Shown here one piece after another: positions 1-18,256 of a stretch of 25,804 nt of DNA. The number at the start of each line of letters is the position of its first letter. The first letter of the stretch is position 1. The position numbers were made by a program, and so were the translations under genes. The stretch spans positions 1-25,804 of the IMG/VR virus record IMGVR_UViG_648276650_000007; one strand, written 5' to 3'. The DNA comes from a virus (taxonomy: Duplodnaviria > Heunggongvirae > Uroviricota > Caudoviricetes). The notes below the pieces were generated by a model. The model was not told the DNA's origin, did not search any database, and saw only the letters and a list, made by a program, of their open reading frames with translations.

Positions 1-342
1 GACGAAGTAATTTTCAGGGAATATTTCTATGACACACCACCAGAAGGAAAATACAGATGTGTTGGAGAAGATGGACTGCCTGCATGGGCAGATATTCCTC
101 CACCAACACGTGAAGAACAAATTGCATCAGCCGAAACTAAAAAGCAGCAATTGATTAATCAGGCCAACGATTATATGAACAGTAGACAATGGGTTGGTAA
201 AGCGGCTATTGGTCGTCTGAAAGGTGAGGAACTGGCGCAATATAATTTGTGGCTGGATTATCTGGACGCACTGGAGCTGGTCGATACTTCCGGTGCACCA
301 GATATTGAATGGCCTACGCCTCCGGCAGTTCAGGCCAGATGA
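1..342 (+). CDS. tail fibre assembly protein, alternative copy (partial; 5' end upstream of window)
   Basis: Frame 1 is open from base 1 to the stop at 340-342. Translation ends ...ELAQYNLWLDYLDALELVDTSGAPDIEWPTPP, the same C-terminal signature as the convergent gene at 314..916 (...LNAVLDYIDAVTATDTSTAPDVIWPELP). The ORF track lists only 151..342 because it needs a start codon. Confidence 0.6.
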   Translation, partial: DEVIFREYFYDTPPEGKYRCVGEDGLPAWADIPPPTREEQIASAETKKQQLINQANDYMNSRQWVGKAAIGRLKGEELAQYNLWLDYLDALELVDTSGAPDIEWPTPPAVQAR

Positions 343-916
343 CATCCGGCGCGGTGCTGGTATCTGTTGCCGTCACCGCGTCAATGTAATCCAGCACGGC
401 GTTAAGGCGGGTTGTTTCTGCCTGCGTCAGCTTCCGTCCGGCCTGTAATTTCAGTTGAATCAGACTGATGGAGGCCATTGCAGTATCAATCAGCGACTGG
501 CGCTGTGCTTCTGCTGCATCTACTGCTGCGCCGTGCTGTGCCTCAGTATCGGTCACCCATTTCTCACCATCCCATTTATCGTATGGCGTTAACGGGGCGA
601 TAGTGGTTGTATTTTCAGGGTAATCACCCGGAGTTGTGATTTCTTTGGCTTCTCCCGTTTCGGTGTTATAGACGATTTCACCGCGATGGTCTGGCACATA
701 TTCCCATGAGTTAAAATCTGCAGAACGGCAGATAGCATAACCAGCCTTATATGTGCCTGGTGAATCTAAACAGGAATATGCCGGGATACCAACACCAACG
801 GCAAGATATTCATTTGAAGTGGAAATATATTCCCGTATTTCACCATCATAGTTATAGACGGTAATATTCCCTGCCTTCGTGGCAATAATCTCGCTATTTA
901 ATACAGCGTTATCCAT
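314..916 (-). CDS. G: tail fibre assembly protein (P2 G-like chaperone)
   Basis: 200 aa ORF directly downstream of the tail-fibre gene, start overlapping its stop at 916. C-terminal tail-fibre-assembly signature (LDYIDAV...APDVIWPELP). Position matches P2 gene order H-G. Confidence 0.8.
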   Translation of the reverse strand: MDNAVLNSEIIATKAGNITVYNYDGEIREYISTSNEYLAVGVGIPAYSCLDSPGTYKAGYAICRSADFNSWEYVPDHRGEIVYNTETGEAKEITTPGDYPENTTTIAPLTPYDKWDGEKWVTDTEAQHGAAVDAAEAQRQSLIDTAMASISLIQLKLQAGRKLTQAETTRLNAVLDYIDAVTATDTSTAPDVIWPELPEA

Positions 917-4937: not shown

Positions 4938-5384
4938 TCACCCCGCCAGCCATTGCAGAATCATGTCGCGGGTCATTGCCTCAACATCATCATTTACACC
5001 CAGAAGGCGACGCTCTGCGTAACGCACCTCCGGTCCCTTACGACTGACGCGATCTCGCAGGCCGTAATGGTGAATGCGGGCAATGCGCTGCACCTTGCCT
5101 TCAAACTGCACGCTGGCAGAGTCGGTGCTGGCGGCAGTTTTCAGGTATTTTGTGGTGCGCAGCTTTGCAAACATCTGACGTTTGATACGGCCTTTTTTAC
5201 TGCGTGCTGTTACCCGTCGCGGTTCATAGCCGCTGCCGTCAGGGTTGCGCTGCATCCTGATATTCTGCTGCTGTGTCCGGCGAAGTTCCTGCGCCAGCTG
5301 GCGCATCATGCGGCTTCTCGAGGCTGGTTCCAGATTCGCCAGCAAGGCACTCAGCCAGTCGTCCACCTTCTGCAGTTCAGCCAC
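4938..5384 (-). CDS. S: tail completion protein S (virion morphogenesis)
   Basis: 148 aa; synteny between R and the V promoter gap; overlaps R by 8 nt. Confidence 0.8.
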   Translation of the reverse strand: MAELQKVDDWLSALLANLEPASRSRMMRQLAQELRRTQQQNIRMQRNPDGSGYEPRRVTARSKKGRIKRQMFAKLRTTKYLKTAASTDSASVQFEGKVQRIARIHHYGLRDRVSRKGPEVRYAERRLLGVNDDVEAMTRDMILQWLAG

Positions 5385-5829
5385 GTTTCACCGTCCACAT
5401 TTCTTCTGGTGCATCAGGTTCCGCTATAGCTTCAACGCTCGACACACTGCCGTCAGTGCTGACCAGCACACGTTCCGTCAGTTGCAGGTTCAGGCTGATA
5501 TCACAGACATCGTTGCGCAGAATATCCACCTCAAAGGTGAATAGCTTTTCCCGTAACGCCGGGTTATTGATGGCATCGGGCTGGTTATCCCTCAGCCACA
5601 GCAAAACCGGGGCCATCAGCAGATTCTGGTCGCCGCTGAAATCCTCAATCACCGCGTTCAGTGTGTAACGGTACTCCCACGACATGGAGCTGGCCCCCGT
5701 GGCAACCAGCGAACCGTTATCCACAAACAGATGCAGTTTGTCCGGGTTATTGCGGACATAAGGCACCGCTTTATTGAGGGCGTGGCGCAGGGATTGTGGT
5801 TTGTTCACTGTTTCGCTCCTGACACGCAA
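5377..5829 (-). CDS. R: tail completion protein R
   Basis: 150 aa; ...SLRHALNKAVPYVRNNPDKLHLFVDNGS...YRYTLNAVIEDFSGD resembles P2 gpR. Confidence 0.8.
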   Translation of the reverse strand: MRVRSETVNKPQSLRHALNKAVPYVRNNPDKLHLFVDNGSLVATGASSMSWEYRYTLNAVIEDFSGDQNLLMAPVLLWLRDNQPDAINNPALREKLFTFEVDILRNDVCDISLNLQLTERVLVSTDGSVSSVEAIAEPDAPEEMWTVKRG

Positions 5830-6061
5830 TAATCATGTCCACTTTGTCTGCACAGACCGCCCAGGCGGCCTCCGTTTCATCCAGCAACGCGTTCAGATCA
5901 CCGTTAGTGCGCGGCGTTGCCTGATCCAGCCGACACGGCGTCACTCGCGGACAACCACTGACGGTAAGCCATACCTCCGGTGAGTGCCGGACGTTTCCGC
6001 AGCCGGATAATGTCAGCAGGCAAAGGAGTATCAGCCCAGCGGCGTAAATCCTCGTTCTCAC
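5771..6061 (-). CDS. lysC: outer-membrane spanin lipoprotein (LysC / Rz1-like), embedded out of frame in lysB
   Basis: 96 aa; signal peptide with lipobox LTLSGC, Pro-rich C-terminus; starts inside the lysB reading frame and extends past it. Confidence 0.7.
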   Translation of the reverse strand: MRTRIYAAGLILLCLLTLSGCGNVRHSPEVWLTVSGCPRVTPCRLDQATPRTNGDLNALLDETEAAWAVCADKVDMIIACQERNSEQTTIPAPRPQ

Positions 6062-6332
6062 GTTTCAGTTCCTCGATCCGGTGTTGTCGTTGTCTCAGCA
6101 GCGTGCTGGTCTGTTCTGCTTCGGCATAGAGCCGCGCCTGCTCCCGGTTATTGGTTTCAGTCAGAATGGACAGGCTGATAAGCTGGCTATTGCTCTTTGC
6201 CAGTGCCTGGCTTTTGCTCTGCAGCTCGTCTGCCTGCGTGCTGATGGTCTGGCTGGCATCAGCCAGCCGCCACGTCTGCCAGCCCAGCGCCGCCAGTAAT
6301 AACGTCAGCACAACCAGCAGCAACCGGTTCAT
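5904..6332 (-). CDS. lysB: inner-membrane spanin (LysB / Rz-like)
   Basis: 142 aa; N-terminal TM (LLLVVLTLLLAALGW) then charged coiled-coil-like region; ATGA overlap with the lysA stop. Confidence 0.75.
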   Translation of the reverse strand: MNRLLLVVLTLLLAALGWQTWRLADASQTISTQADELQSKSQALAKSNSQLISLSILTETNNREQARLYAEAEQTSTLLRQRQHRIEELKRENEDLRRWADTPLPADIIRLRKRPALTGGMAYRQWLSASDAVSAGSGNAAH

Positions 6333-6706
6333 GCTGCTACCTGTTGCGCCATCTGATTACGGGTGATCCAGAAGGCAATAACGGTCAGTAGATAAAAGAC
6401 CAGGGTAATAGCCCACCCCGTCCAGGCGAGACTTACAACAATCAGCAATCGCATCACCCAACTGGTAAATACGTTTTCTTTTCGGGTAATTGTCTTCAGC
6501 AAAGATGCCCTTAACTCCTGCCAGAGCGGGCCATTCTTAATTAACGCAGCCAGTGCTACCGGAATTACCGCCCATGTCAGCAAACAGGCTACCCAAACGC
6601 CGGACGCTGCCAGTACCGGAAAAATCCTCTGCGGATACACCATTGCTGCGATTAACAGCGCCATCCATAACATCAGAAACAGTCCGCTGATTAATTTCTT
6701 TTTCAT
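6329..6706 (-). CDS. LysA-like lysis-associated membrane protein
   Basis: ORF 6329..6778. Start placed at Met25 (MKKKLISGLFLMLWMALLIAAMV) because it abuts the endolysin stop at 6708; several hydrophobic segments. Confidence 0.6.
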   Translation of the reverse strand: MKKKLISGLFLMLWMALLIAAMVYPQRIFPVLAASGVWVACLLTWAVIPVALAALIKNGPLWQELRASLLKTITRKENVFTSWVMRLLIVVSLAWTGWAITLVFYLLTVIAFWITRNQMAQQVAA

Positions 6707-6707
6707 T

Positions 6708-7220
6708 TCAGTTTGCTCCCTGTAAACACCAGGCCATCTCCCGCGCACGGCGGTTATCCAGCCCCTGATTAAAAACACCTTTCACATAAACCCAGCGCGG
6801 CAACTGTCGGCATGCATCCGCCCAGCGCCGCTGATTGAGCAATTTCACCAGCGTGGAACTACAGGCATTGCCCGTCCCCACGTTGAAGGCAAACGACACC
6901 GTAGCGTCATACACCTTCTGCGGCGGCTGTTGCTTCACACACCTTTCCAGCGCCCGCTCCACTCGTAGCACGTTGGAGATCAGCCCTTCAGCTGCCTGTC
7001 GTTCCGTAATAATTTTGCCGGGAATGACGCCCGACGTATTACCAATGCCGTCGGTCCAGACACCCGCGCTGCACTGATACGGCTGCAGACGACAGCCTTC
7101 ATAATCGGCGATCAGTTTCAGTCCCTCCTCGGAGGTGTGAAGCTGCTGAAACCCCGGCAGCGTGGCAGCAATAGCCAGCACGGCCCCGACAAGGCAGCGT
7201 TTAACGATTGATGGATTCAT
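6708..7220 (-). CDS. endolysin, T4-lysozyme-like (GH24), possibly signal-anchored
   Basis: 170 aa; E-x8-D-x-T-like catalytic region (SEEGLKLIADYEGCRLQPYQCSAGVWTDGIGNT); weakly hydrophobic Gly/Ala-rich N-terminus (RCLVGAVLAIAATLPGF); sits between holin and LysA. Confidence 0.85.
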   Translation of the reverse strand: MNPSIVKRCLVGAVLAIAATLPGFQQLHTSEEGLKLIADYEGCRLQPYQCSAGVWTDGIGNTSGVIPGKIITERQAAEGLISNVLRVERALERCVKQQPPQKVYDATVSFAFNVGTGNACSSTLVKLLNQRRWADACRQLPRWVYVKGVFNQGLDNRRAREMAWCLQGAN

Positions 7221-7416
7221 AGTCCTCCCGCGAGATCTGCCCGTCGCGCAGAAGCTGGTAGGCTTTGTGTTTGTAGTACCAGTTGATAGCCAGCATCAGC
7301 ACACCGATCATCAGGCCGCCCAGCGTTGAGGCATCCTTGATGGACAAATCGCCCAGCCAGGCCAGCACGACGGCGATGCAATACGTGATAAAGGCGCTGA
7401 TTCGCTCAAGCGTCAT
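7201..7416 (-). CDS. holin
   Basis: 71 aa with two hydrophobic helices (ISAFITYCIAVVLAWLG, LGGLMIGVLMLAINWYY) and a charged C-terminus; immediately upstream of the endolysin with a 20-nt overlap. Confidence 0.7.
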   Translation of the reverse strand: MTLERISAFITYCIAVVLAWLGDLSIKDASTLGGLMIGVLMLAINWYYKHKAYQLLRDGQISREDYESINR

Positions 7417-7419
7417 AAT

Positions 7420-7623
7420 TCAGTCCCATAGCTGGACGGTCTGCACGGTGGTGGTTGTCGGAATGTCCGGCAGCTCCACCTGCAGCCCGTGAGGTAAAAA
7501 GGGGCCGTATTCGGCAAGCCCCGGATTTGCCTTCAGTACCTGCTCCGTGACACCCTGCGTGCGCCCGTAATGACGCCAGCAAAGTGCGTCCACCGTGTCA
7601 TACTGATGCGCACGCACTTTCAT
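7420..7623 (-). CDS. X: tail protein X
   Basis: 67 aa; MKVRAHQYDTVDALCWRHYGRTQGVTEQVLKANPGLAEYGPFLPHGLQVELPD resembles P2 gpX; same length and position as in P2. Confidence 0.85.
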   Translation of the reverse strand: MKVRAHQYDTVDALCWRHYGRTQGVTEQVLKANPGLAEYGPFLPHGLQVELPDIPTTTTVQTVQLWD

Positions 7624-8150
7624 CAGATAAGCTCCACTGTGCAGTGCGGCGCATCCTGCACCCGGCTGATGGCCCAGCGGGCGTCACGCCATAAATCACC
7701 GCTTGCTTCCGCCAGTTCCTCGCCTCGCTTCGCACCGGATGCCGTGGCGTCATAGTCCTGGTAACGTTCGTTGAGCATGGCGCGTGCCCAGCAATAAACC
7801 GCGTTGAAATAGTGCTGAATGCGCTCGCTTTTGCCGTCCAGTTGTTCCGCCGGGACTTCTGCCAGCGAGGCATACCCCAGCATCTGCTGGCGTCTGCGAA
7901 ACTCATACAGCTCTGCGTTGACCTCCGAAATTGCCGACAGAGCAACCTGTTTTAAACGCGGCTGCGTCACCGTGCCGTCAGTGCGCATCACACTGCGAAA
8001 CTCCGACAGGTCCACATCAGGCCAGAACGGCGTATTCCTGATGATTTCCGCCTGTTCCGGTGCCTGTTCTGGCGCAACAAACTTCATGCTGCTTTCTCCT
8101 GAAATAGAGGGCGGTGGACGGGGTTTTGATGTGGCAGTGCCTTTCGCCAC
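7623..8150 (-). CDS. L: head completion/stabilisation protein L
   Basis: 175 aa; ...IIRNTPFWPDVDLSEF...ELWRDARWAISRVQDAPHCTVELI resembles P2 gpL. Confidence 0.85.
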   Translation of the reverse strand: MAKGTATSKPRPPPSISGESSMKFVAPEQAPEQAEIIRNTPFWPDVDLSEFRSVMRTDGTVTQPRLKQVALSAISEVNAELYEFRRRQQMLGYASLAEVPAEQLDGKSERIQHYFNAVYCWARAMLNERYQDYDATASGAKRGEELAEASGDLWRDARWAISRVQDAPHCTVELI

Positions 8151-8182
8151 CCCGTGCCGCCCGTGCGCGGGGGCACGTTCTG

Positions 8183-8833
8183 TCAGCGGCTGTCATTGCG
8201 CAGTCTGCGCTCCAGCTGCTGTTTGTCTTTTTTCACGCCACAGCGGGGATCGAGCTGTAACGCATGGTTGAGATGATTAAGGGCAGACGCCGGATTTCTT
8301 TCACTCAGGACAGCGCCAATCGCTTTATGCAGACGCGCCCGTGACTGGTCCGGCATATCCATACCGTCTGTCAGCTCCAGGGTCTGCAGCAACAGATCGG
8401 CATCAAAGCCGGTGGCGGCAAGCATTGCGCTCTGGGCTGCATCTGCCATTTCCTCTGCCAGCACGGTCTGCACGTTGCGGTTACCTAACGGCATCACCCA
8501 GCCATGACGCAGGGCGTGACGCCCGATCTCCAGCGCCCCGGCATAATCTCCGGCATCAATGCGCCACAGCATCACGTACATCAGCACGTCATCCTGTTGA
8601 GCGCCTCCGGCAGCCAGGACACCCTCCGCCCAAGCGGCGTACTTCGGCAGCAGCTCCACCTTGATTTCCGCTTTTTTGACCGTGGACTGAACGCCCTTGA
8701 GACGGCGGCGGTCTTCCGCCAGTTGCAGCAGCATCAGGTCATAGCCCGACGCGTGGCGAACGCTGCCGCCCTCGCGGGCGGCCTGTTCAGCCTGAACGCG
8801 CAGGCGATGCTGCCGTGCGGGACTCAGGCTCAT
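8183..8833 (-). CDS. M: terminase small (endonuclease) subunit M
   Basis: 216 aa; MSLSPARQHRLRVQ...DDVLMYVMLWRIDAGDYAGALEIGRHALRHG resembles P2 gpM. Confidence 0.85.
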   Translation of the reverse strand: MSLSPARQHRLRVQAEQAAREGGSVRHASGYDLMLLQLAEDRRRLKGVQSTVKKAEIKVELLPKYAAWAEGVLAAGGAQQDDVLMYVMLWRIDAGDYAGALEIGRHALRHGWVMPLGNRNVQTVLAEEMADAAQSAMLAATGFDADLLLQTLELTDGMDMPDQSRARLHKAIGAVLSERNPASALNHLNHALQLDPRCGVKKDKQQLERRLRNDSR

Positions 8834-8836
8834 GAA

Positions 8837-9895
8837 TTACGCTCCGGTTTCTGCTGCTGCGGCGCTGAAGTCGCCAATCTGGATGTTTTCCACCAGTGCG
8901 GCGCAGCGGTAGTCCTCAACCACATAGGCTTCGTTAACGGATTCAAAGTTTTCAATCCGGTCACGTTTCGGGTTGTCGATAACTGAGCGGCGGCGGGTGT
9001 CTTCCTGCCAGTAGATGGACAGGTTATCCAGACGGGTGATCAGCAGTGCATTCGGCGGGAAGAACGGCGCACGCACGGCCTGCAGGCCAACCATGCGTTT
9101 CTGACTGATGATCATATCGGCAGCCAGTTTTTCACTGTTTTCCTGCTCTTTGTTGACCAGCGGGAAATACTTGTCAGACAGCAGTTCACGACCGCAAATC
9201 ACCACCAGATCGTCATCGTCCTGGTAGACCACATCGATAAGCTCATTGACGGCATCCATCACCACGGCGTCCAGGTTGGCATATTCGCCACCTTTCCCGA
9301 CTTTCACCGCACCCGGTGTGGTTTCACCGCCCGTGGTGGTGCTGCCCATGACGTGATCCGGTGCATCTTCACGGATTTTCTGCAGCCAGCCTTTGTTCAC
9401 ATCCTGCAGCAGCGGGTTATCGCTACGGTTGGAGGTTTTCGCACGCTTCACGCCGTTAAAGCCGATCATGATGCGGTCCAGTGCCTGACGTTTCACGATG
9501 GCGTCACGGATGCGCACCTGGAAATCCTGAAACTTCGCCCACAGGTCCAGCTTCGCGTAGGTCAGCACCGTGTCAAAGTTGGTCTGCTCGCATTTATATT
9601 CCACATCGACCATCAGCGTCGGATCGACAGGTTCACGCTCTTTCGCGGTGGTGTCAGTGGTTCCGGCAATGGTGCTGCCAACTCCCAGCCCCAGCAGCTG
9701 ACCGGACTGCTCAGTCACTGGCGTGACGTTAATCAGCGTCAGGAAAGCGGCGGACTGCTGGATCTGGTCTTCCAGCGTCTGCTGTACAGACGGCTCTACG
9801 GTGAACTTGCTGGACAGTTCTTCAACTGCCACACCGTTCAGACGCGCCAGCTGCTGCAGGTAAGCGTTAAAAGCAAAGCGGGTATTCTTCTTCAT
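8837..9895 (-). CDS. N: major capsid protein N
   Basis: 352 aa; TRFAFNAYLQQLARLNGV...KFTVEPSVQQTL...GSTIAGTTDTT resembles P2 gpN. Confidence 0.9.
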   Translation of the reverse strand: MKKNTRFAFNAYLQQLARLNGVAVEELSSKFTVEPSVQQTLEDQIQQSAAFLTLINVTPVTEQSGQLLGLGVGSTIAGTTDTTAKEREPVDPTLMVDVEYKCEQTNFDTVLTYAKLDLWAKFQDFQVRIRDAIVKRQALDRIMIGFNGVKRAKTSNRSDNPLLQDVNKGWLQKIREDAPDHVMGSTTTGGETTPGAVKVGKGGEYANLDAVVMDAVNELIDVVYQDDDDLVVICGRELLSDKYFPLVNKEQENSEKLAADMIISQKRMVGLQAVRAPFFPPNALLITRLDNLSIYWQEDTRRRSVIDNPKRDRIENFESVNEAYVVEDYRCAALVENIQIGDFSAAAAETGA

Positions 9896-12654: not shown

Positions 12655-13688
12655 TGGGAAAGAGTAAGAAGAACCGCGCTGCGGCGACGAAACAGATCCA
12701 GCTTAAAAGTCAAACTACAGCCGAAGCATTCAGCTTCGGCGATCCCGTTCCTGTTCTGGACCGCCGAGAACTGCTGGATTATGTGGAATGCGTACAGATG
12801 GACCGTTGGTATGAGCCGCCCGTCAGCTTTGACGGACTGGCGCGCACCTTCCGCGCCGCCGTGCATCACAGTTCCCCGATTGCAGTAAAGTGCAACATTC
12901 TGACCAGTACCTATATCCCTCATCCGCTGCTCAGCCAGCAGGCTTTTTCGCGTTTTGTGCAGGACTATCTGGTATTTGGTAACGCCTACCTGGAGAAACG
13001 CACGAACCGATTCGGTGAAGTTATCGCTATTGAGCCTGCGCTTGCAAAATACACCCGACGCGGATTAGACCTGGATACCTACTGGTTTGTGCAATACGGT
13101 ATGACAACCCTGCCGTATCAGTTCACGAAAGGCAGCATTTTTCATCTGATGGAACCGGACATCAACCAGGAGATCTACGGCCTGCCCGGTTATCTTTCTG
13201 CCATTCCGTCAGCCCTGCTCAACGAGTCCGCCACGCTGTTCCGCCGCAAGTATTACATTAACGGTAGCCATGCAGGCTTCATCATGTATATGACCGATGC
13301 CGCGCAGAACCAGGAAGATGTGAACAACCTCCGCAACGCAATGAAAAGCGCCAAAGGCCCTGGCAACTTCCGCAATCTGTTTATGTACTCGCCTAACGGC
13401 AAAAAGGACGGACTTCAGATTATCCCGTTGTCAGAGGTCGCAGCGAAGGATGAGTTTTTGAATATCAAGAACGTGAGTCGGGATGACATGATGGCAGCAC
13501 ATCGTGTGCCGCCGCAAATGATGGGGATTATGCCGAGTAATGTTGGGGGTTTTGGGGATGTGGAGAAAGCCAGCCGCGTCTTTGTTCGCAACGAGTTGAT
13601 ACCTCTGCAGAAGCGCCTTCAGGAATTGAACGACTGGCTTGGAGAAGAAGTCATGCGTTTTGAAGATTATAATTTAGGTATTGAATGA
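12651..13688 (+). CDS. Q: portal protein Q
   Basis: 345 aa, the size of P2 gpQ; co-directional and coupled with P, as in the P2 P-Q operon. Confidence 0.9.
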   Translation: MMGKSKKNRAAATKQIQLKSQTTAEAFSFGDPVPVLDRRELLDYVECVQMDRWYEPPVSFDGLARTFRAAVHHSSPIAVKCNILTSTYIPHPLLSQQAFSRFVQDYLVFGNAYLEKRTNRFGEVIAIEPALAKYTRRGLDLDTYWFVQYGMTTLPYQFTKGSIFHLMEPDINQEIYGLPGYLSAIPSALLNESATLFRRKYYINGSHAGFIMYMTDAAQNQEDVNNLRNAMKSAKGPGNFRNLFMYSPNGKKDGLQIIPLSEVAAKDEFLNIKNVSRDDMMAAHRVPPQMMGIMPSNVGGFGDVEKASRVFVRNELIPLQKRLQELNDWLGEEVMRFEDYNLGIE

Positions 13689-13693
13689 TATTT

Positions 13694-13717
13694 AAAAGCC
13701 TGTACAAACAGGCTTTT
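13694..13717. terminator. intrinsic terminator hairpin between convergent Q and the cargo operon
   Basis: Perfect 10-bp stem AAAAGCCTGT / ACAGGCTTTT with ACAA loop, followed by a T-rich run on the + strand; lies between the Q stop (13688) and the stop of the minus-strand gene at 13758. Confidence 0.6.
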
Positions 13718-13757
13718 ATTCTTTAGTTTAAAATCACCAAGACATGAGCATTAAAAC

Positions 13758-14423
13758 TTAAAGATCCGGATCTACAGGCTCATGATATAGATTTACAGGG
13801 TAATGAATAACTTCATAATTCAGTTGAGTAACTGTGTGAACATGCTGGCTATAAAAAACCAATGGATTTTTTTGACAAGGAGTAATCGTTATAGATTTAC
13901 AGGCATGAATTCTTGGTGCGAATTTATCTAAATGCGCCTTCCAGTTGCTCATCATTTCATTACATTTTCTATTACGAGTATAGATAATCAATCCACCACT
14001 TGCGCTGTCTACGGTCCCTGTACTATATCGTTCAGTGAGTTGAGCATACCCTTTAAATAAATAACTATATGAAGATGTATGTTTTTTGGCTTCGCCATGC
14101 CAAATATAATCCTTTAGTTTTATTGTAATATCACAATGTCCGCGCTGATTATTTTCATGAAATGCTTCAATGTCCATATCTTTATTTTTGATATTGGCCA
14201 ATAAAATTAAAGTAAGCTGATCTTCTGTTAAATCGAAGTTTAACTTATTTGAATTCTCTTCTATTTCCTTTACAGCAGAATCAAGTTCAATCCTGACAAA
14301 TTGTTTGAAATTATCGTACGATTGAAGTGCAAATCTAACACGAGTAATAGAAGCATTAATACGCTGAAGAAAAATATCATTATCAATATCAGCCAAACTC
14401 ATTGCTGCAGACATTTTTAACAT
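13758..14423 (-). CDS. hypothetical protein, cargo gene 3 of 3; possible PD-(D/E)xK-type nuclease
   Basis: 221 aa, AT-rich codon usage unlike the flanking phage genes. Start ATG overlaps the stop of gene 2 (TGATG). Contains EAFHE...GHCDITIKLKDYIWHGEAKK, compatible with an E...D...ExK nuclease core; this is inference from motif spacing only. Confidence 0.65.
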   Translation of the reverse strand: MLKMSAAMSLADIDNDIFLQRINASITRVRFALQSYDNFKQFVRIELDSAVKEIEENSNKLNFDLTEDQLTLILLANIKNKDMDIEAFHENNQRGHCDITIKLKDYIWHGEAKKHTSSYSYLFKGYAQLTERYSTGTVDSASGGLIIYTRNRKCNEMMSNWKAHLDKFAPRIHACKSITITPCQKNPLVFYSQHVHTVTQLNYEVIHYPVNLYHEPVDPDL

Positions 14424-14869
14424 CAGATAATATCCTTTGATTTAGATTCATCTAATGTAAAAAAAGGAAATACGAATGACTTATAGTCATACATAAGCTC
14501 CCCTGTAAATGGGTTTGCTAAAGATTGACTGATTTCCGCCTCAATAACTTCCTCTATTTCAAGTTCTACAGGGTCATGAAAATCATCAATGAACCAATAA
14601 TTGAGTTTTAAAAAATCAACCTTTGGGCTACAAAGAATTTGTATGGCCGGATAGATAACCTGCTCATACGTTTCTGGCTGTAAAACCTTATTATAACCAC
14701 CAGCTATATTAAATAAATCCTTATAACTTAAAGCTATATTTGATGATTTTTTAGCCCTTGCCTCGATTTCATCGTACAAATAGCAAGCTAACGCCCCAAT
14801 TTCAGGGCGTTCTGCACACATTTCTTTGATGATCTTGGGCATATCACCATCCTTCATTGCTGACTCCAA
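14423..14869 (-). CDS. hypothetical protein, cargo gene 2 of 3 (small acidic protein)
   Basis: 148 aa; start is directly adjacent to the gene 1 stop; acidic C-terminal half (DDFHDPVELEIEEVIEAEISQ); no motif I recognise. Confidence 0.6.
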   Translation of the reverse strand: MESAMKDGDMPKIIKEMCAERPEIGALACYLYDEIEARAKKSSNIALSYKDLFNIAGGYNKVLQPETYEQVIYPAIQILCSPKVDFLKLNYWFIDDFHDPVELEIEEVIEAEISQSLANPFTGELMYDYKSFVFPFFTLDESKSKDII

Positions 14870-15976
14870 TTATAATATCAGCTTTGTGAGGGTTTCGAAA
14901 TCATCTTTGGATATACATTTACTTAATATAGCATAGTTAACAGGAGAGCAACTACTCCCTCCTAGATGCCTGCGGAGTGTTCCCGGAATGATAAGCTCTA
15001 CGTTATCCGCTAATTGCAGTTTTGGATTATTTCTATCAACTCTAATTCCAATACGATACAAACCAATACTGCCTACTGCTTTGATGCCTTCCTTATTAAA
15101 CAAATCATCACGTAAGTCTTTAGTGGCCACATTTTTCTTTTCTTTATGCGTAGTCCCCTCATTCGTCAAAAATGACAAATCAAAGACTTTATAGCTTAAT
15201 TTTGAATAAGGCAATGAATTTTGTTTGAAAATTGGCTCAATTAACGGATAAAAATCTTTTTCCGATGATTTAAATTCATAACCGACATGATTATACAATT
15301 CACGAATAATGTTACTCTTTGCAAAAGTAACATTATCACCAATAATATTACCATTAGTATCTACCAAAACATGAATTTTATTAGTAACAGAGTCTAATAT
15401 ACAGACATCAAAACATTGTCGCTTTTCTTTTCGCTTTGCAATAATTTCATCAAACTGCTTGTATTGCGCAAGTGCTGACGGGGGAATTTTTTCTCTTACA
15501 ACTAATTCTCTGACAGATGAAAAAACAAGTATTGACTGGGTGTTTTGAATAGAATAATTAACAAGTTCAGGTTGATTTTTTACAGCATTTTGCAATTGGA
15601 CATCATCAAGGATCGAATCAACCAATAATGATGGTTGATTCATCAAATTCCATTGGAAACTAAATCTGTCATTTAGTGTTTTAATTACACTATTATCTAC
15701 AGTCAAACTAAATATTGCTTTTTCACCATAAACGACCTGACCCAAAATTAGGTCATTTACGTTTGCCATAATGCCATCAAACTTTTGCCTATCTTTACTT
15801 TTAAGATCAATGAGGCTTTCTAGTATTTTTTCGTTTGTTGCTTCACGCCCCCTACCTGTTGGCAGCCCTAAAGACGCAATAATTGGCCTTGCAACGTTCC
15901 ATGTGAAACGTTCAGTTAAGGTCAAGATCGACTTTAACTCAGACTCAGAAAGCACTACTGGGACACTACCTGTCAT
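14870..15976 (-). CDS. hypothetical protein, cargo gene 1 of 3
   Basis: ORF 14870..15985 begins with GTG; the in-frame ATG at 15976 (MTGSVPVV...) is preceded by an AGGTG Shine-Dalgarno-like sequence. ~368 aa; no Walker A or other motif recognised by eye. Confidence 0.65.
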   Translation of the reverse strand: MTGSVPVVLSESELKSILTLTERFTWNVARPIIASLGLPTGRGREATNEKILESLIDLKSKDRQKFDGIMANVNDLILGQVVYGEKAIFSLTVDNSVIKTLNDRFSFQWNLMNQPSLLVDSILDDVQLQNAVKNQPELVNYSIQNTQSILVFSSVRELVVREKIPPSALAQYKQFDEIIAKRKEKRQCFDVCILDSVTNKIHVLVDTNGNIIGDNVTFAKSNIIRELYNHVGYEFKSSEKDFYPLIEPIFKQNSLPYSKLSYKVFDLSFLTNEGTTHKEKKNVATKDLRDDLFNKEGIKAVGSIGLYRIGIRVDRNNPKLQLADNVELIIPGTLRRHLGGSSCSPVNYAILSKCISKDDFETLTKLIL

Positions 15977-16125
15977 AACTTGCACCTAGTCATCCAAAAA
16001 GCAATAAGAATTTGCTCTTGTCTTAATTTATCCTTCGATACCTAACAAATTACCTCAATGTTGAAAAAATTTGCAAGCCATTTGCTTCTAAAAAGCGACC
16101 TTACTCAGAGTGTTACAAAACTAAG

Positions 16126-16139
16126 CGAGCGCGCGCTCG
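16126..16139. repeat. perfect 14-bp GC-rich palindrome CGAGCGCGCGCTCG
   Basis: Read directly from the sequence; lies in the non-coding GC-rich island between the AT-rich cargo operon and the lipoprotein genes, abutting the cos-like motif. Confidence 0.85.
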
Positions 16140-16154
16140 TATCCCCGCCACGCC
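16136..16154 (-). other. candidate cos (cohesive end) site
   Basis: Minus strand reads GGCGTGGCGGGGATACGAG. The first 13 nt match the 19-nt cohesive end I recall for phage 186 (GGCGTGGCGGGGAAAGCAT) and 12 of 13 match P2 (GGCGAGGCGGGGAAAGCAC). Orientation is correct relative to Q (5' end of the motif points toward Q). Depends on my memory of the cos sequences. Confidence 0.3.
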
Positions 16155-16634
16155 TGCCCGCTTTATGTAGTAGTTTTCATGCACCTGCATGACATGAGCA
16201 AAAGCCCGCCAGTTCTGGCATGTCTTAGCCAAACCGATCCTCAAACGATCATGCGAACTCATGCAGCATAGACATGCATGACATGAAAATCGGTCAAACC
16301 TTGAAACCAGTCATAAATATGAGCCAGCTTAATACACACTAAATAGCTGCGTCTAATACTGCTACACCTGCCGTTTACTGACATGTGGCATGTCGCGTAA
16401 GGACAACATACTGTAGGCCAGATACAGCAGGATCAGGCGAAGAAAACGGCCCCACGCCTTACCCAGCAAGAGCCAAGGGCCAAGGGCTAACCGAAAGTGG
16501 AACATTATTCCGCGCAGTTATTTAGTGTCAGCTCTTTTGAGCTAAAATCAAGTTTCAACATGAGGGTCTGTGCAGGCTTTCTCATCCCGCTAATTTATAC
16601 AGCACACCTATATGGCTATGAGTTTGTCATGCCC

Positions 16635-16683: not shown

Positions 16684-17490
16684 ATGAAGAAATTAACTGG
16701 CGTAATTGCTTTTGCTCTGCTGCTTACTGCTTGTGACAAACCGAAGATCGATGCATCAAGCGATCAGTCGATGAAAGAGTCCATTCAAAAAGTAAGAGAG
16801 TCCTTACCTGCAGATAAAAAAGCTCAGTTTGATGATGCAGTTAAAGTCGTTGCCTTTAGCCAAATCAACATGAGAGAGCTAATGCAGGCTGGAACGTCTT
16901 CTGGGGACGTCTACGAAACAAAAATTAAGTCAGCGTTGGAAGGTAAAACTGGTGATGAGGTTATAAATTACGCACAAACTATTCGCCTTGAGCGTGAGAA
17001 GAGAGAGAAAGAACAGGCTCTGCAAGAAATAAAAGAACTGGAAGCCAAACAAACCTCTGCAACACAGGCTGCGGAAAAAATGAAAGCCTTCAAGGTCGAA
17101 CGTTCCCGTTTTTATTTCCAGAAAGAGGATTACGGCAATGATCAGCCAATTCTGGATATTAGCGTTGAAAACGGAACAGACAAAGCGGTTGCCAGAGTAT
17201 TCTTCAAAGGAGTTATTGCCAGCCCAGGAAGAAGCGTCCCTTGGTTCTCTGACGTCTTCAACTATAAAATTTCTGGAGGTCTGGAACCAGGTGAGAAAGC
17301 CAACTGGAAATTAGCCCCTAATAGATACTCTGATTGGGGAAAACTTAAAGTTCCGGCTGATGCTATATTTACCGTCACAGTCATTGGCCTTGAAGACGCA
17401 GATGGGAAATCGATCTATGGTGACGCCGAGTTTTCAGAACGCGATGCTGACAGACTGAATCAACTTAGAGATAAGTACCTTTCTAAATAA
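16684..17490 (+). CDS. hypothetical lipoprotein
   Basis: ORF 16612..17490; start placed at Met25 (MKKLTGVIAFALLLTACDKPK) because of the signal peptide with lipobox LLTAC and the hairpin covering the upstream part; ~268 aa mature protein with a Lys/Glu-rich coiled-coil-like middle. Confidence 0.7.
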   Translation: MKKLTGVIAFALLLTACDKPKIDASSDQSMKESIQKVRESLPADKKAQFDDAVKVVAFSQINMRELMQAGTSSGDVYETKIKSALEGKTGDEVINYAQTIRLEREKREKEQALQEIKELEAKQTSATQAAEKMKAFKVERSRFYFQKEDYGNDQPILDISVENGTDKAVARVFFKGVIASPGRSVPWFSDVFNYKISGGLEPGEKANWKLAPNRYSDWGKLKVPADAIFTVTVIGLEDADGKSIYGDAEFSERDADRLNQLRDKYLSK

Positions 17491-17598
17491 TCAAAATTAA
17501 AGCTACTTCAGCATAGTCCCTGAGAATATATATCAGGGACTACCAAATCACGGCAGATACCCCTTAGTTAAATAATGCTAAACGCTTAGAAAGAGACC

Positions 17599-17898
17599 AT
17601 GAAACGTATAACTTTCTCCTTTACGTTAGTAGCAATCATCATAGCCTTAGCTGGATGTGCTTTGCCAGATAAAGACGGCGACTTCGGAGCTTATGTTCAT
17701 GCCTGTCAGCAATATGCATACGGAAAATCCTATGCCTTTGAGAATAGAGACTTCGCGTATAAGGTCTGTAAGGACGCGGCGAAACTGTGGAGTGACGAAG
17801 TTCCTGGCTATATCATCAGGCAAATTCAACTACATCCTGAAATACCCAGCGAAGAAATTAAATATGCAGCCATGGCCGGCTCTTTGGGGAACAACTAA
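17599..17898 (+). CDS. hypothetical small lipoprotein
   Basis: 99 aa; signal peptide with lipobox IALAGC; co-directional with the preceding lipoprotein gene. Confidence 0.6.
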   Translation: MKRITFSFTLVAIIIALAGCALPDKDGDFGAYVHACQQYAYGKSYAFENRDFAYKVCKDAAKLWSDEVPGYIIRQIQLHPEIPSEEIKYAAMAGSLGNN

Positions 17899-17965
17899 AT
17901 CAACTTATGAGAAAGGGGCTTAATGCCCCTTTTCGGTTCCCTTATCAAGTCCTAACGAAACAAGC

Positions 17966-18256
17966 TCAACTGATTACATCCATCGACCTACTGTATTCAT
18001 GGCTTCGAATTTTCGCCATCAACTCATCAGTCAATTCAGAAACCCACTGCAGAGCTAGCCCCTTCTCTTCATCACTACACTCACTAGCCGCTACAAGCTT
18101 AAGAAAAAAATCAATGCGCTGGAGCTTCAAAGACTCCAAAAAATAGTCCTGCATCTTTCCTCCTATAACACCATACGCAATACTGTACATATAACCACTG
18201 TTTATATTTACAGTATATAATAATCTTACTGATGTAAAACGTTTTTTTACGTTCAT
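17966..18256 (-). CDS. hypothetical protein downstream of replication gene A
   Basis: 96 aa AT-rich ORF; no recognisable motif; start uncertain. Confidence 0.3.
   Translation of the reverse strand: MNVKKRFTSVRLLYTVNINSGYMYSIAYGVIGGKMQDYFLESLKLQRIDFFLKLVAASECSDEEKGLALQWVSELTDELMAKIRSHEYSRSMDVIS

Follow-up and report, generated by a model that had tools for sequence, protein, structure and literature searches.

The interval between the replication gene A and the portal gene Q of P2-like phages (gpA-gpQ) is a cos-proximal hotspot rich in defense systems, and those validated in it include old/tin, DUF4238, hp+hp+hp, DprA-PRTase and 2TM-1TM-TIR (Rousset et al., 2022; PMC9122126). Here we analyzed 25,804 nucleotides (nt) of DNA from the Caudoviricetes record IMGVR_UViG_648276650_000007. 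This whole stretch, hereafter the window, is 100% identical to a P2/186-like prophage in Escherichia coli MS 115-1 that is integrated beside rcdA/ybjJ. Within its hotspot it carries a ~2.2-kb cassette of three open reading frames (ORFs) on the minus strand (13758-15976; coordinates are window positions unless a locus label precedes them), whose genes 1, 2 and 3 are abbreviated g1, g2 and g3. We propose that the cassette is a three-component nuclease-based anti-phage (superinfection-exclusion) system carried as prophage cargo, and from sequence evidence and structure models we put the probability of this reading at roughly 55%. We favor it because of the hotspot location, mobility, synteny, selection, predicted folds, a variant with a TIR domain and a DefensePredictor score.

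Comparison with described systems

The prophage-encoded RexAB system of lambda has one component with an RdgC/RexA DNA-binding fold: RexA, the sensor of Rex exclusion, is RdgC-like, and RdgC rings encircle double-stranded DNA (PMC11077077). RexAB combines the RexA sensor with the membrane effector RexB. Its proposed logic, in which a sensor of DNA state activates a separate effector, may by analogy be the same as that of the cassette, but the two share the fold class only. Neither RexA nor RexB was matched in Pfam or PADLOC, and g2 and g3 are both predicted to be soluble (grand average of hydropathy -0.15 and -0.43, respectively), with no multi-pass membrane partner.

The hp+hp+hp system of E. 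coli E1114, which protects against P1, sits in the same hotspot at a similar cos-adjacent position and also consists of three domain-less genes. Its proteins have 333, 359 and 227 amino acids (aa), versus 368, 144 and 221 aa in the cassette. Identity between the two systems was rejected, as BLASTP and phmmer gave E > 0.07 and hhalign gave probabilities of at most 0.6% for any pair of proteins. We take hp+hp+hp to be the system that DefenseFinder names Rst_3HP. P2 Old, an ATPase-Toprim nuclease, and P2 Tin are accessory exclusion cargo of the same gpA-gpQ region. They are unrelated to the cassette proteins, and they lie on the A side of cos whereas the cassette lies on the Q side. A preliminary description of this locus, made from the sequence alone, had likened its position to that of old/tin; the likeness holds for the region and fails for the side of cos.

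The type II enzymes BamHI, OkrAI, BstYI and BglII have the same core fold and catalytic E...D...ExK arrangement as g3, at 7-10% identity and with no Pfam BamHI match. What sets g3 apart from them is a helical hairpin at the N terminus (residues 10-56), the obligatory partnership with g1 and g2, and the lack of a cognate methyltransferase. Hachiman HamA, Shedu SduA, CBASS NucC/Cap4 and Can2/Card1 are partner-regulated PD-(D/E)xK effectors, from which the cassette differs in having no helicase, cyclase or CARF/SAVED partner and no PADLOC match. By analogy, the cassette may work like Rex-type or Hachiman/Shedu-type “sensor plus nuclease” systems. Judging from the models, its membership is at the fold level only, in the RdgC/RexA fold class and the PD-(D/E)xK superfamily. 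By sequence, it falls outside RexAB, RdgC (PF04381), 3HP, restriction-modification and every PADLOC family.

Predicted folds and conserved residues of the cassette proteins

AlphaFold models of g1 and g3 were built from family alignments. The g3 model is confident (predicted local distance difference test score, pLDDT, 86.7) and has the alpha-beta-beta-beta-alpha-beta core fold of the PD-(D/E)xK superfamily. Residues E67, D98, E111 and K113 are invariant in 38 of 38 representatives (25-100% identical). On the basis of the model, we propose that g3 is a PD-(D/E)xK nuclease with a BamHI/BglII-like fold and acts as the effector.

The g1 model is also confident (pLDDT 86.2) and superposes on the RdgC/RexA/IML3-CHL4 fold class over the base and centre domains. 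We propose g1 as an RdgC-fold protein and as the DNA-binding or sensing subunit. It is ~11% identical to E. coli RdgC (PF04381), a ring-shaped, recombination-associated DNA-binding protein. It differs from RdgC in an additional helical region at the N terminus, in conserved acidic and basic residues of its own, and in being encoded together with g2 and g3 on mobile elements in every case. No Pfam match to PF04381 was found in g1 or in 44 remote homologs at E ≤ 1e-2 (0.01). Residues Q187, D190, D206, E279, D287, L288, R289, G297 and C354 are each shared by at least 85% of 37 diverse relatives of g1, and could form a catalytic site, a ligand site or the interface with g2. To our knowledge, RdgC has no need for residues equivalent to this set.

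The sequence of g2 suggests a small acidic adaptor or inhibitor that partners the nuclease; the isoelectric point (pI) is 4.4-5.1 among its orthologs. The preliminary description had reported no P-loop, helix-turn-helix or other motif that could be placed in g1 and g2. This stands in that neither matches a sequence family, but the model of g1 shows an RdgC fold; g3 does carry a PD-(D/E)xK motif.

Gene boundaries, composition and selection

Translation of g1 (14870-15976, minus strand) yields 368 aa (pI 8.5) from an ATG that is also used by RefSeq and is preceded at 6 nt by the ribosome-binding site AGGTG. An alternative GTG start three codons upstream would give 371 aa (14870-15985, minus strand). 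For g2 (14423-14857, minus strand), the ORF and ribosome-binding site indicate 144 aa (pI 4.4) from an ATG. Other possible starts are a TTG at 14869 (14423-14869, 148 aa) and an ATG at 14842, and the RefSeq annotation of MS 115-1 gives 139 aa. From the sequence, the ATG at 14857 is the likelier true start, because GGAG lies 6 nt upstream, the PHROG alignment begins there and homologs have 144 aa. The third gene, g3 (13758-14423, minus strand), encodes 221 aa, and its start overlaps the g2 stop (cTGATG, with base 14423 common to both).

This overlap had been noticed in the preliminary description and is seen in the sequence. The direct adjacency of g1 and g2 that it also reported is obtained only with the TTG start of g2; the likelier ATG start leaves a 12-nt gap. 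Its picture of three AT-rich minus-strand genes between the Q terminator and the cos region agrees with the ORFs and with the guanine-plus-cytosine (GC) profile, which is 0.31-0.38 across 13501-16000 versus 0.55-0.62 in the flanking P2-type structural genes.

Ratios of nonsynonymous to synonymous substitution rates (dN/dS), calculated against an 85%-identical E. coli variant, are 0.13 for g1, 0.14 for g2 and 0.065 for g3. Given these low values, and the shared synteny in every related locus examined except one (L006, described below), all three are real genes under purifying selection.

Distribution, synteny and mobility

Of 5426 complete E. coli genomes, 21 have the cassette, which comes in two variants there. 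As the distribution is so sporadic, the three genes are not a conserved structural gene set of the kind that the preliminary description had named as an alternative. Close homologs of the cassette proteins are confined to Enterobacterales. An exhaustive search with a g1 profile recovered 433 cluster representatives at E ≤ 1e-3 (232 at E ≤ 1e-10), and nearly all of those listed have 340-400 aa and match over most of their length. The remote members of this superfamily have no Pfam or PADLOC family. Where enough DNA was available, remote g1 homologs (21-26% identity) were followed by homologs of g2 and g3.

A motif scan of IMG/VR with g3 yielded 68 viral loci, which together with other loci make 81, or 42 clusters at 80% identity. 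The order g1-g2-g3 is kept in 80 of the 81 loci, usually with overlapping or abutting reading frames, and operon GC is lower than flank GC in 41 of the 42 clusters (flank GC 0.34-0.66). The same A...Q site is occupied in P2-like prophages of Rosenbergiella and Plesiomonas. In Providencia manganoxydans (L007, 8001-10224), the cassette lies in a P4-like satellite between the primase gene and psu; the genes of this satellite include those for an integrase, a Toprim primase, Psu and Ogr/Delta. P2 and P4 are reported almost never to exchange defense genes (NAR 2026 study). The trio also occurs in Klebsiella phage KP12, in Acinetobacter prophages and in Moraxella phage Mcat13.

In Stx1a-converting phages, the trio is located between the antiterminator gene Q and stx1A, antisense to the late transcript. 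An example is Stx1_499 (LC567825; L084, 5475-7582), in which the distant trio encodes 350, 130 and 221 aa and g3 is 35% identical. Among the 5426 complete E. coli genomes, 23 carry this version at ≥99% identity, and O145:H28 is represented among them. At 5001-9216 of the long chromosomal contig L014, a CBASS operon with a SMODS and AGS_C cyclase and a SLATT_6 effector stands directly beside a remote trio (374, 136 and 247 aa), a context that is defense-island-like. The flanks of 28 remote loci mostly encode integrase, CI, CII, antiterminator Q and lysis proteins, with occasional defense genes. Sequence comparison across these loci indicates that the cassette is horizontally mobile and moves as one unit. 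For the copy in the window, the GC contrast, the sporadic distribution and the hotspot position bear out the earlier proposal that it is horizontally acquired cargo.

In Klebsiella sp. I138 (L005, 7977-9106), two ORFs in different frames make up g1, and the portal gene next to the cassette is reduced to a fragment. This locus looks like a decaying prophage remnant, or possibly the split is a sequencing error.

Replacement of g1 by a TIR module

The sole exception to the conserved gene order is a metagenomic phage-like contig that has no g1 (L006, 2765-4764). It encodes a 458-aa protein that combines a ThsB-like TIR_2 domain with two hydrophobic helices and, at its C terminus, a domain similar to g2 (residues 325-452, E = 1e-23). 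This fusion of TIR, two transmembrane helices and g2 is translationally coupled to a g3 homolog. Because L006 swaps g1 for a TIR module, g2 and g3 are, at the level of sequence, a constant pair, in which g2 behaves as a docking element that connects the nuclease to an upstream module that varies. As TIR is a hallmark immune domain, its coupling to g2-g3 argues for immunity and against a role in recombination.

Searches against known families and the literature

We compared the three proteins with PADLOC-DB v2.0.0, which covers known and candidate defense systems, and found no family at E ≤ 1 for g1, g2 or g3. Among 45 members of the g1 superfamily, PADLOC gave merely chance-level matches (E ≥ 0.0026), and the same was true of the Stx-phage version. 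Pfam and NCBIfam returned nothing for any of the three proteins; weak Pfam matches to DUF7628 (E = 0.045) and Rep3_C (E = 0.0026) were below the curated cut-offs and were discarded. In PHROGs, the proteins match families 12777, 11490 and 9664, all of “unknown function.” Profiles of g1 and g3 had no match among PDB sequences at E ≤ 10. By these searches, which include the Pfam and PADLOC profile searches that the preliminary description had suggested, the cassette matches no described defense, toxin-antitoxin or metabolic family.

A literature search by accessions, PHROG identifiers, RdgC-like defense proteins and Stx-phage defense found no description of the cassette. The other P2 and P4 systems tested in Tables S2A/B of Rousset et al. 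were rejected as matches after all entries had been read, and the new P4 systems Crouga, Bandua, Aernus, Toga, Reve and Hailong (NAR 2026) were set apart by their descriptions alone. The cassette had been called undescribed, and this is accurate in that it belongs to no described family. The locus itself has appeared before: it is listed in Rousset Table S5A as six “hypothetical” proteins, including WP_000148121, and a g1 variant has been flagged by DefensePredictor. In detail, the g1 variant at 85% (WP_021580613.1) is entered in Table S10 of that work as a “Predicted novel defense gene” with a mean log-odds of 8.40, against a strict cut-off of 4; it shows no homology to known defense proteins, and its remote-homology columns are empty. 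WP_021580613.1 is absent from the DefensePredictor tables of cloned units.

Proposed mechanism

We infer the defense function itself, as well as complex formation, the identity of the sensing subunit and the nuclease target. As we envisage it, g1 would be an RdgC-like DNA-binding clamp, probably dimeric, that recognizes DNA in a state that infection typically brings about, for example with free double-stranded ends or as replication and recombination intermediates. This would be the kind of sensing role proposed for the RdgC-like RexA of lambda. The small, acidic g2 would be an obligatory partner of the nuclease that tethers g3 to g1, keeps g3 inactive, or both. Upon sensing, g3 would be licensed to cut DNA, either that of the invader or indiscriminately, the latter leading to abortive infection.

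A broader and distinctly more tentative possibility is that the cassette represents a widespread, unnamed immune family. In such a family, an RdgC-type ring on the ends or intermediates of invading DNA would license a BamHI-like nuclease through an acidic adaptor, and the portable g2-g3 module could also be wired to a membrane TIR protein.

Several points weigh against a defensive, g1-sensed nuclease system. RdgC is a modulator of recombination and replication, not an immune protein. A pure DNA clamp would not need the conserved acidic residues D190, D206, E279 and D287 of g1. The assignment of roles is ambiguous, as the exchange of g1 for TIR would be expected of an effector no less than of a sensor. 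On the minus strand of the region upstream of g1 (15977-16127) there is no sigma-70 consensus, and no promoter was identified for the gene. Position in the hotspot is only probabilistic evidence: about one-third of the hotspot systems cloned by Rousset et al. (2022; PMC9122126) protected, and the cassette is absent from the systems cloned or tested in that study. Among P4 loci without known function, six of eight protected (NAR 2026 study).

Alternative explanations

The most probable of the alternatives, though in itself unlikely, is a restriction-like system without a methylase, of a type IV-like modification-dependent or an end-dependent kind. Here g3 would cut foreign DNA directly, g1 would merely be a sliding clamp or loader, and defense would involve neither a separate sensing step nor abortive infection. 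The closest folds to g3 are indeed true type II restriction endonucleases, McrC is also among them, and RdgC rings encircle double-stranded DNA (PMC11077077). The absence of a methyltransferase domain from the operon, as determined with Pfam, separates it from type II restriction-modification and agrees with this alternative; the prophage has a Dam-type methylase 6 kb away in the replication module, which is core P2/186 equipment. However, g3 is always found with g2 and nearly always with g1, which suggests regulation rather than a stand-alone enzyme, and the TIR-fused variant is hard to fit. An addiction module of the toxin-antitoxin type that stabilizes the prophage or satellite, with g3 as toxin, g2 as antitoxin, g1 as regulator and any anti-phage effect secondary, ranks next and seems rather improbable to us. 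A small acidic protein translationally coupled to a nuclease, the invariance of the g2-g3 core and the carriage of the operon by mobile elements would all suit such a module. The gene order would be unusual for it, as would a 368-aa first gene that is kept at full length in 433 representatives. Moreover, Pfam identified no helix-turn-helix or autoregulator domain, no toxin-antitoxin family was matched in Pfam, NCBIfam or PADLOC, and the operon is located in defense-enriched hotspots.

We consider it still less probable that the genes form a lambda Red-like recombination or replication module serving the carrier phage, with a PD-(D/E)xK exonuclease, a DNA-binding partner and an acidic Gam-like inhibitor of host nucleases. 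The fold of g3 is like that of restriction enzymes and not like that of lambda exonuclease, and neither the accessory positions of the cassette nor the TIR variant favors such a module, even though RdgC carries the label “recombination-associated” and annotations describe RdgC-like proteins of phages as exonucleases or recombination proteins. The protein sizes recall those of Exo and Gam, which we take to be 226 and 138 aa. Least probable of all, and very much so, is cargo for counter-defense or competition between elements, for example of P2 against P4 or against host nucleases. Small acidic proteins are often DNA mimics that inhibit host defenses, but an invariant active nuclease site is not typical of anti-defense proteins. 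P2 and P4 hotspots are involved in phage-satellite conflict (PMC9122126), but the cassette is present alike in P2-like phages, a P4-like satellite, and lambdoid, Acinetobacter and Moraxella phages. As far as computation reaches, the hotspot position, the sporadic distribution and the absence of a known family support the cassette as candidate anti-phage cargo, as first suggested.

The insertion site and neighboring genes

The local gene order is P - Q - [g3 g2 g1] - cos region - [DUF6694 lipoprotein, 99-aa lipoprotein, 62-aa ORF] - A. The cassette therefore lies between the portal gene Q and the replication gene A, beside cos, at a position that is variable among relatives. Between the Q stop (13688) and the g3 stop is a bidirectional hairpin resembling an intrinsic terminator (13693-13718), common to the convergent P-Q and g1-g2-g3 transcripts. 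It has an 11-bp stem followed by a T run on the plus strand, and consists of the palindrome TAAAAGCCTGT-ACAA-ACAGGCTTTTA with A/T runs on both sides.

Upstream of g1, an AT-rich region (15977-16127, minus strand) is, from reading of the sequence, the presumed promoter or leader. The operon presumably needs a promoter of its own in the lysogen, yet this region has no sigma-70-like match. The Rfam scan of the window found no RNA family.

The insertion site is bounded by a homolog of the cos region (16128-16278) with the core CTCGTATCCCCGCCACGCC at 16139-16157. This core differs from the P2 cos 19-mer, of which there is no exact copy, and the cos region is therefore named by its conservation. We presume the CTCGTATCCCCGCCACGCC core to be akin to the phage 186-type end sequence. 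The segment 16128-16278 is 80-92% conserved in 89 P2-like phage records and is the sole non-coding piece at the locus to be so conserved. It is closely similar to the cos-containing part of the E1114 fragment cloned by Rousset et al.

There are two sub-sites for insertion in the hotspot, one on either side of cos and both carrying cargo, since the cassette is between Q and cos and P2 old/tin is between cos and A. In the window, the block beyond cos (16684-18154) encodes the DUF6694 lipoprotein (16684-17490, plus strand), the 99-aa putative lipoprotein (17599-17898, plus strand) and the 62-aa ORF (17966-18154, minus strand), and PADLOC gave no match for any gene in this block. In the related PA45B prophage, only DinI and a small hypothetical gene lie between cos and A. 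At the other end of the window (1-916; L001, 200-1217), the RefSeq annotation has two genes for tail-fibre assembly that point in opposite directions and overlap tail to tail, beside a gp53-like fragment. This may be the remnant of an alternative or invertible tail-fibre cassette.

Implications

The cassette is new in that its architecture is undescribed and cannot be linked by sequence to described systems; as hotspot cargo of a prophage with a nuclease effector, it is of a known kind. To specialists the general claim is unsurprising, as they expect a defensive role of such cargo. The cassette is a good experimental lead, since it pairs an RdgC-fold partner with a portable g2-g3 module, belongs to a broad family and occurs beside stx1. 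At 2.2 kb it is compact, and it has clear catalytic residues for mutation.

If the cassette proves protective, it would constitute a new defense family of P2-like phages, P4-like satellites and lambdoid phages, with members also in Klebsiella, Acinetobacter and Moraxella phages and, in Stx1a phages of O145:H28 E. coli, immediately next to the Shiga-toxin genes. It would account for some of the “dark matter” in the P2 hotspot; no defense gene is recognizable in 19% of P2 elements (PMC13586616). The RdgC-fold protein would then join the short list of candidate immune DNA sensors, and would provide a soluble counterpart to lambda RexA, whose trigger has puzzled for decades. Should the more tentative possibility of a widespread ring-licensed nuclease family also be true, the RdgC/RexA fold would be a general sensor of “foreign DNA state” in bacterial immunity, and the trigger of Rex-type exclusion would become accessible in a soluble, tractable system.

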